IMG/VR virus record: IMGVR_UViG_3300035501_000578
Location: 32,001-96,000 of that record
Origin: a virus
Lineage: Duplodnaviria > Caudoviricetes
Strand: one strand, 5' to 3'
DNA: 64,000 nt
Position numbers and translations under genes: made by a program. The notes under the pieces are model-generated. The model ran no database searches. It saw only the letters and a program-made list of their open reading frames with translations, and was not told the origin of the DNA. Positions 5,245 to 5,818 of this stretch are shown in pieces (positions within the stretch are counted from its first letter, which is position 1; every line of letters starts with the position of its first letter).

Positions 5245-5818
5245 TCGTTAGACGAAACACTACGTCCAAATACATTACTTAAACTTATTAAAAATCGCAA
5301 TGTACACTATGCATTATAAGCAGATGCTACATTATGGCTGTAGCCTACTCAAAGGATGGGTATGTCTGTGGGGATTGCTCTCTATACAATTTTAAATTGT
5401 ACAAAATCCTTTATATATACGATTACACTCTAAAAAGAGTGGAGTGCCGTCCTGCTCGTTATCTGTTGTCAATAGCACTTAGGCTTATATATCAGTTCTC
5501 ACCAATTTTCCCGTATGCCAACATAATCAATTTTTTCTACTTTCGTAACCTCATCCGCAAAAATAGGGATTACGGTTTGATATGTATTCCAGTGATAATC
5601 AAAAAGATTACCAGAAGGCTAATTGAACTTAGCCAAACTTTCAAGCATTTACTCCTTCATGTTTAGTTTATACTCCGCTAAAAGTGTTTGCAGAGTCTTA
5701 TTAAAAACTCCATGTATCCATAGACTTGTTATAACGCCATTATGTTATTTTCTTATCTACGATTACCCAATTAAAAACTATAGGCGAGTTTATTAATTTT
5801 TGTCGCTCTAATGAGCCA
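5245..5818 (-). ncRNA. Divergent group I-like ribozyme core of intron 3
   Basis: P1 and P10 guide; P3 GAAGGA/UCCUUU; P4 UGCUUG/CGAGCA; P6 GGA/UCC; R-like AAUCCCCACAGACAU versus AAUCCUCAGAGACUG in intron 1; P8 GAGUAG-GCUACA/UGUAGC-CUGCUU; two P9-like hairpins. P7 is not canonical. Confidence 0.65.

Follow-up and report, generated by a model that had tools for sequence, protein, structure and literature searches.

A probable group I intron core with a split P7 helix in a phage tape-measure gene, with variable cargo and a remote 3' splice site

The minus-strand RNA at positions 5818-5246 of a 64,000-nt stretch of viral DNA (hereafter the window; bases 32001-96000 of an AT-rich 112-kb IMG/VR virus record) is probably a working group I intron core with a split P7 helix, that is, an IStron-related ribozyme which carries another cargo and would splice in the ordinary way. 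This reading is based on helices observed in the RNA, on their covariation and on the conservation of a whole family: this RNA occupies one and the same gene site in more than 90 contigs of gut phages and metagenome-assembled genomes (MAGs), and at least seven sequence types of it can be told apart. The features by which a group I intron is recognised from its sequence were all found, with the exception of an Rfam score, and those of P7 only if that helix is read as split.

The interrupted tape-measure gene

The tape-measure gene reads leftward from 10498 to 1 (matches to Pfam PF10145 and PF06791), and its product resembles the tape-measure protein of Brevibacillus phage Sundance. It is broken at three points by intervening sequences, and comparison with homologs on 14 viral contigs showed that the frame is unbroken over all three sites in other phages. 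The third intervening sequence lies just past the codons VKNF(T). It could be delimited to 5818-2036 (minus strand, 3,783 nt, with the ribozyme core at its 5' end) because in an uninterrupted homolog (contig L006) the residues coded before 5819 join directly to those coded from about 2030, exons 3 and 4 being contiguous, and because the exon 4 frame offers no ATG, GTG or TTG before 1705, i.e. about 110 codons without a start. The exon 3 frame reaches a stop 16 codons past the proposed splice site. A megablast of the gene region against phage records gave no match.

Splice sites and guide sequence

The 5' splice site falls between 5819 and 5818, following U5819, and the 3' splice site between 2036 and 2035 (minus strand). 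The P1 helix exists among relatives in four covarying versions (UUACU/GGUAA, UUGAU/GUCAA, UUCGU/GCGAA and UUGCU/GGCAA), and its U.G pair is kept in all of them. Upstream of the P1 part of the guide, the segment 5789-5768 is complementary to 2035-2014 over 22 nt with a single G.U, compared with background matches of at most 14 nt. The usual P10 of group I introns counts a few base pairs, so that this one is far longer. Guide and 3' exon covary among relatives. The intron ends in G2036, and in all relatives with a located 3' splice site the base before the P10 target is likewise a G. The U.G pair in P1, a P10 segment 5' of P1 within the guide and a terminal (omega) G, all expected of a group I intron, are thus present (Table 1).

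The long complementarity was also considered as the 22-bp terminal inverted repeats of a transposon or of an invertible segment. These readings were rejected: one of the 'repeats' belongs to the conserved coding part of exon 4, the two complementary segments covary in the manner of paired RNA, inversion does not restore the frame and a recombinase is absent. An 11-bp hairpin at 1986-2051 (minus strand) spans the 3' splice site and holds the 22-nt P10 target in its loop; it surfaced as a chance match to an Rfam microRNA family.

Table 1. Features of the third intervening sequence and adjoining exons (window coordinates)
Feature	Position	Strand	Remarks
Exon 3, last 5 nt (P1 5' strand)	5819..5823	-	pairs with 5767-5763; U.G at 5819/5767
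Internal guide	5763..5789	-	P10 part 5789-5768, then P1 part 5767-5763; usual group I order
P3 5' strand	5653..5658	-	partner 5356-5351; 100% paired in 18 sequences, one compensatory pair
P4 5' strand	5642..5647	-	partner 5458-5453; invariant, fully paired; same place as P4 of standard relatives
J4/5	5641-5639	-	A-rich, directly after the P4 5' strand
P5 and extension	5461..5638	-	P5 5638-5634 with 5465-5461; encloses 168 nt
GAAA-tetraloop hairpin and A-rich stretch	5548-5531	-	within the P5 extension, whose sub-helices covary
P6	5372..5452	-	5452-5450 with 5374-5372; inner 5447-5442 with 5382-5377; internal hairpins
P7 5' strand	5361..5368	-	C5368, bulged A5367, G5366, A5365, C5364, bulged A5363, U5362, A5361
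P8	5319..5349	-	outer 5349-5345 with 5323-5319; inner 5344-5340 with 5330-5326
J8/7	5318-5310	-	invariant in all relatives
P7 3' strand, first part	5309-5306	-	5365/5306, 5364/5307, 5362/5308, 5361/5309; invariant
Inserted hairpin 1 (here P9*)	5270..5305	-	5305-5299 with 5276-5270; three compensatory pairs
Inserted hairpin 2 (here P9.1)	5248..5269	-	5269-5263 with 5254-5248; compensatory changes in 7 of 7 pairs
P7 3' strand, second part	5246..5247	-	C5247 proposed partner of G5366; G5246 partner of C5368
Cargo and 3' tail	2036..5245	-	ends in terminal G2036
Zinc-ribbon gene	2091..2489	+	133 aa; antisense to the tape-measure gene, beside the 3' splice site
Exon 4 start (P10 target)	2014..2035	-	first 22 nt; homology to L006 begins here

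Relatives of the RNA

Relatives were gathered by several routes. A search of viral contigs with the motif of the P5 extension returned two identical contig copies, with 73% identity over the whole RNA; a 20-mer from the S strand identified 42 viral contigs; a pattern anchored on P4'-P6, which left R and S free, yielded 47 contigs, L191 and L192 among them; and an R..S pattern run on metagenomes yielded 47 contigs, mostly from human gut. Two further sequence types, on Lachnospiraceae MAG contigs obtained via a neighbouring protein (L241 and L240), were recognised by a covariance model of the 3' domain. Identities range from 66 to 97% overall (66-87% between sequence types, up to 97% in the main cluster), and in every case with inspected flanks the RNA is placed behind the same codons of the tape-measure gene. 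The invariance of the P7 strands is partly an effect of the retrieval, as many relatives were found with patterns which fix parts of R and S. The anchor pattern and the covariance model made no such demand, and among types retrieved without it (window, main cluster, L192 and L241) both strands are still invariant.

Core helices and their covariation

P3, P4-P6 and P8 follow each other in the standard order of a group I core, with the P3/P7 pseudoknot. Compensatory changes occur in P3, P5 and P8, and P4 and P6 are positionally homologous to those of Rfam-aligned relatives. In the P6 stems changes are either absent or confined to one side; apart from one conserved A.A these stems are fully paired, and the hairpin 5401-5385 within P6 covaries. 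P8 shows compensatory changes in seven of its ten pairs and was predicted independently by RNAalifold. An earlier note, made from the window sequence alone, had claimed P3, P4, P6 and P8 and a greatly expanded P5; homology and covariation bear out the presence of these helices and the size of P5, with exact pairings that are in part other than a single sequence would suggest. The segment 5409-5405, for instance, pairs with 5424-5421, and its pairing with 5376-5372 as P6 is not kept in relatives. A helix of 5378-5374 with 5301-5297 was also discarded, as its bases are taken by P6 and by the extended hairpin 1.

For a test of the whole RNA, 19 representatives were aligned and a structure of 103 pairs was imposed that had been set by window coordinates only. 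Paired states filled 95.7% of the cells and double changes were found in 38 of the 103 pairs, against 14.4 +/- 2.2 in shuffled alignments (none of 500 reached 38) and 2 to 8 in slid controls. The compensatory changes are spread over P1, P1a, P2, P2.1, P3, P5, four helices of the P5 extension, the internal hairpin of P6, P8 and the 3' hairpins. In the 3' domain, 98.2% of cells are paired with 19 double-change pairs, figures which come from an alignment (A4) fitted to the covariance model and therefore favour the structure of that model. The proposed helices thus covary in an alignment of homologs, the check which the earlier note had put forward. Its remark that decay would be hard to reconcile with an intact guide in an essential gene can be taken further, since compensatory changes of this abundance across conserved relatives, together with the invariant P7 strands, exclude decay.

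Rfam searches and other introns of the genome

The group I model RF00028, whose use on the core had likewise been suggested, found no match in 5100-5900 even at E<=10, nor over the whole genome record. This is a weak test, because the same model also reported nothing for the first two introns of the tape-measure gene and gave weak scores for several clear relatives. The P7 strands of intron 1 (8416-8712) and intron 2 (6215-8181, both introns on the minus strand) look standard as far as they were identified, which is for the two strands of intron 1 and the 3' strand of intron 2; these introns went unreported in an Rfam scan of 1-14000 as well as in the RF00028 search of the whole record. A further group I intron, in the capsid gene (20066-20404, minus strand), scored 67 bits against RF00028 when presented in a 1.5-kb stretch. 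A gathering-threshold Rfam scan of the full 64-kb window missed this capsid intron, so that a whole-window Rfam negative is unreliable for introns here.

The P7 helix

The R-like strand 5370-5359 and the S-like strand 5318-5305 (minus strand) are those which the earlier note had quoted as non-canonical, rightly so: 5309-5305 and 5366-5361 cannot form the standard 5-bp helix of the GACUA/UAGUC type. That the other introns of this genome are standard in this respect also proved correct (GACUA/UAGUC in the capsid intron, GACUG/CAGUC in intron 1, with the 3' strand of intron 2 reading the same). In the standard register of the local strands, G5366 stands opposite G5305 and the 5' strand contains a surplus A5363. 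Neither UAGUC nor any other complement of the P7 5' strand occurs in the 3,783-nt intron.

Two things had escaped the note: 5305-5299 forms part of another helix, and the 3' strand of P7 most likely resumes at 5247-5246, just short of the end (5245) which it gave for the feature. The pair 5305/5270 occurs as G-C, G.U and A-U and so covaries inside hairpin 1; G5305 therefore does not pair with G5366. Position 5247 lies 59 nt further along than 5306 and the gap is filled by the two hairpins, the second of which directly abuts both the first and C5247, with zero linker nucleotides. The 5' strand of P7 is homologous to the R element of standard relatives and invariant except at 5368/5367. In relatives with a standard P7 and in intron 1, the base two before the G pairs with the base after its C and one bulged base lies between; this set of flanking pair, bulge and G-site pair we take to be equivalent to C262-G312, A263 and G264-C311 of the Tetrahymena intron. 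The same set is absent from the contiguous strands of the present RNA, and present if its 3' strand is composed of 5309-5306 and 5247-5246. C5247 was invariant in 91 of the 91 sequences with enough downstream sequence for scoring. Among 17 distinct sequences the pair 5368/5246 is A-U in 11, C-G in five and G-C in one (L240), with no mismatch, a covariation that amounts on the tree to about two evolutionary events (one A-U clade and the single G-C sequence).

The G5366-C5247 pair is predicted from the geometry and from this covarying neighbour; its two bases never vary, so that the pair itself is without direct covariation. Most likely it re-creates, within a four-way junction, the pair that normally makes up the guanosine site. 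According to the proposed model, the upper four pairs of P7 would form locally with A5363 bulged, after which the 3' strand would exit into hairpins 5305-5270 and 5269-5248 and return to place C5247 against G5366, as the guanosine-binding pair, and G5246 against C5368 over the bulged A5367. With zero linkers the junction would be a perfect four-way one, and the predicted geometry would allow the halves of P7 to stack on their continuous 5' strand. The segment 5247-5246, 59 nt downstream, would thus offer a canonical P7 by way of another segment than the note had considered, an outcome which it had itself named as refuting its reading. Altered cofactor binding or dependence on another intron, two of the explanations it had raised, are not needed, as G5366-C5247, 5368-5246 and the bulged 5367 can all be drawn; dependence on a protein may still apply, and its proposal of a new subclass holds as far as structure is concerned.

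Energy-based folding recovers P8 and both 3' hairpins and leaves out P7, a failure that is usual for this helix. A P7 made of 5366-5362 with 5305-5302, using C5302 over a bulged A5303, was tried and rejected: 5303/5272 and 5302/5273 covary inside hairpin 1, and where 5305 has changed from G to A, 5270 has U. Only 5360-5357 separate P7 from P3'. To our knowledge P7 has always been drawn as two contiguous strands, and no further case of a group I intron whose P7 has an insertion in its 3' strand beside the guanosine site is known to us. An insertion next to that site could interfere with it.

Comparison with known introns

A distant BLAST search of the RNA against phage records retrieved only a 45-nt stretch (approximately 5549-5505), in 56-64 records, where it sits in the P5 insertion of group I introns. 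The Rfam scores of these introns are 85 bits for L019, 70 each for L022 and L028, and lower for others. Alignment to standard phage introns placed P4' and P6, and by inspection also P3, J3/4, P4 and J4/5. Among these standard introns are those of Bacillus phage vB_BceH_LY2 (L019), Clostridium phage D-1873 (L020) and Twort-like phages of Staphylococcus, and the capsid intron 20066-20404. The present intron shares with them the motif of the P5 extension, the layout of P3-J3/4-P4 and of P4'-P6, the R- and S-like strands, P8 and the rule of the flanking pair. Standard phage introns have a contiguous 5-bp P7, the P7.1/P7.2 hairpins between P7 and P3', and a short P9 before the terminal G; the present one, in contrast, lacks P7.1/P7.2 and has two hairpins inside the 3' strand of P7, a bulged A5363 and a remote 3' splice site. 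Several standard phage introns were detected by RF00028, whereas this one was not. The GAAA-tetraloop hairpin and its A-run (5548-5505) are nearly invariant in introns of Staphylococcus, Bacillus, Clostridium, Fusobacterium and Alicyclobacillus phages.

The phage T4 nrdD (sunY) intron, reportedly treated by Michel et al. in Genes Dev in 1992, is said to have its 3' splice junction far from the core. The T4 intron resembles the present one in having its core ahead of a long insert and in relying on guide pairings to recognise the 3' splice site, and differs from it in a standard contiguous P7 and in an ORF for a homing endonuclease. We know of no 22-bp P10 in it.

Several of the introns with the 45-nt motif adjoin genes annotated as transposases, which is the IStron arrangement (PMC4227781). 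IStrons are group I introns fused to an IS200/IS605 or IS607 element (CdISt1, BcISt1 and the C. botulinum IStron; PMC4227781, PMC13521648, bioRxiv 10.1101/2023.11.20.567912). The greater part of their ribozyme is 5'-terminal, and of the 3' terminus only 18 nt are required for splicing (PMC13521648; PMC4227781), a precedent for a remote 3' splice site. In the two papers on IStrons that were consulted, only the usual sub-domains are named. The present intron is like IStrons in its 5' ribozyme and in a cargo that separates the core from a remote 3' splice site. In most of its relatives the last five exon bases are TTGAT, as in group A IStrons, whose target this is (PMC4227781). IStrons occupy many sites with variable 3' flanks, whereas relatives of this intron with inspected flanks sit at one fixed codon position of the tape-measure gene; no gene of the tnpA/tnpB type is present, an antisense zinc-ribbon gene always is, P7 is split, and P10 is 15-22 bp long and co-evolves with the 3' exon. 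Since transposase genes are absent and the site is single and fixed, the element is not an IStron. An AU-rich stem of 5156-5130 with 2075-2040, comparable to the inverted-repeat stem of group B IStrons, was no better than in shuffled sequence. The family seems to form a bridge from ribozymes of the IStron type to an intron that is no transposon, keeps to one site and has variable cargo.

Cargo and the remote 3' splice site

The 3' splice site lies 3.2 kb from the core here, and the cargo between core and site spans about 0.5 kb to about 4.7 kb in relatives. Comparison with L147, L150, L151, L153, L175, L179, L180, L093 and L220 showed small genes that differ between contigs and lie on either strand. 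Within an essential gene, the intron thus seems to provide accessory genes with a landing pad. Transposase or TnpB families were found neither in the scanned proteins, six cargo ORFs included (Pfam and PHROGs), nor, on inspection, in the cargo ORFs listed for relatives.

The zinc-ribbon gene was present in every relative whose cargo was examined and codes there for about 130-200 aa; it is found for instance at 7427-8047 of L007, 5750-6204 of L241 and 4976-5284 of L240, and is apparently the sole cargo gene of the last two. Its protein belongs to no Pfam or PHROGs family and could be the intron's own mobility or splicing factor. In L241 the gene lies in two overlapping frames (5750-6007 and 5971-6204), reflecting a frameshift or an assembly error.

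Three terminator-like hairpins were found on the gene strand of the cargo (4600-4572, 3788-3768 and 3155-3123), where 1.2 +/- 1.3 are expected. Because transcription from the core to the 3' splice site would have to pass them, a continuous precursor cannot be taken for granted. Promoter-like sequences in the scanned DNA were no more frequent than by chance (29, with 26.7 expected). In the contigs L240 and L241, where about 0.5 kb separate the core from the 3' splice site, the detected P10 is still long, with at least 15-17 bp; the long guide is therefore not tied to a large cargo.

Alternative explanations and implications

Under the favoured reading, a split P7 in an otherwise ordinary core, the predicted catalysis would begin with attack by guanosine between 5819 and 5818; the terminal G2036 would then enter the same site and the exons would be ligated between 2036 and 2035, while the 22-bp P10 would assist in locating the 3' splice site at its distance of 3.2 kb. 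Another view of the same strands is that the guanosine site is truly altered, G5366 having no Watson-Crick partner and 5305/5270 stacking in its place, so that a new way of binding the nucleophile or the terminal G, or else a protein, would be needed. The local strands indeed cannot yield the G-C pair, 5305/5270 directly continues the stack beyond 5306, G5366-C5247 has no covariation of its own and the ever-present zinc-ribbon protein could act as cofactor. However, the covarying 5368/5246, the bulged 5367 and the invariant C5247 reproduce exactly the lower half of a standard P7, the zero-linker four-way junction puts C5247 opposite G5366, and an invariant G5366 is what would be expected of a guanosine site that still forms. 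We regard an altered site as unlikely. Far less probable still is a decayed ribozyme in a tape-measure gene that is simply broken, or that a mobile island has divided into two proteins. The missing Rfam match, the early stop of the exon 3 frame and a cargo that resembles an island of small unrelated genes would all suit it, but strong purifying selection on the RNA, which shows plentiful compensatory changes across more than 90 contigs, the co-evolution of guide and exons and an exon 4 without a start codon speak strongly against it, and we give it hardly any credence.

A further possibility concerns the delivery of the 3' exon only and is compatible with a split P7: the core would be intact and the intron two-piece or regulated, transcription stopping in the cargo and a second transcript from near 2050 being joined by P10-guided trans-splicing. 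The exceptional length of P10, the three terminator-like hairpins on the gene strand, the antisense genes among the cargo and the hairpin at the start of exon 4, which presents the P10 target, fit such a scheme. Against it, P10 is long in the minimal-cargo contigs L240 and L241 too, and promoters were predicted at chance level. IStrons, moreover, splice in cis across similar distances (PMC13521648). This scheme seems improbable to us.

Given the split P7 reading, it can be speculated, with considerable doubt, that the split has a function of its own: the site would form only when both hairpins fold and stack, and catalysis could be gated by docking of the remote 3' exon, perhaps transcribed on its own, through the 22-bp P10, or by the zinc-ribbon protein. 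If so, this would be a gated, cargo-carrying group I intron controlling the production of full-length tape-measure protein. More generally, if the proposed model is correct, a P7 built across a four-way junction would widen the range of accepted group I cores, would explain why RF00028 misses the whole family and would offer structural biologists a natural test of the tolerance of the guanosine pocket. In the more than 90 contigs of gut phages and MAGs concerned, the tape-measure gene would read as broken if the intron went unrecognised.

One contig (L007) has a 1.7-kb insertion at the same VKNF site (6400-8090), with a homologous zinc-ribbon gene and about 1 kb of non-coding RNA. A long guide was not found in this insertion, and neither Rfam nor the 3'-domain model matches it. 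It may represent a different ribozyme at the same site.
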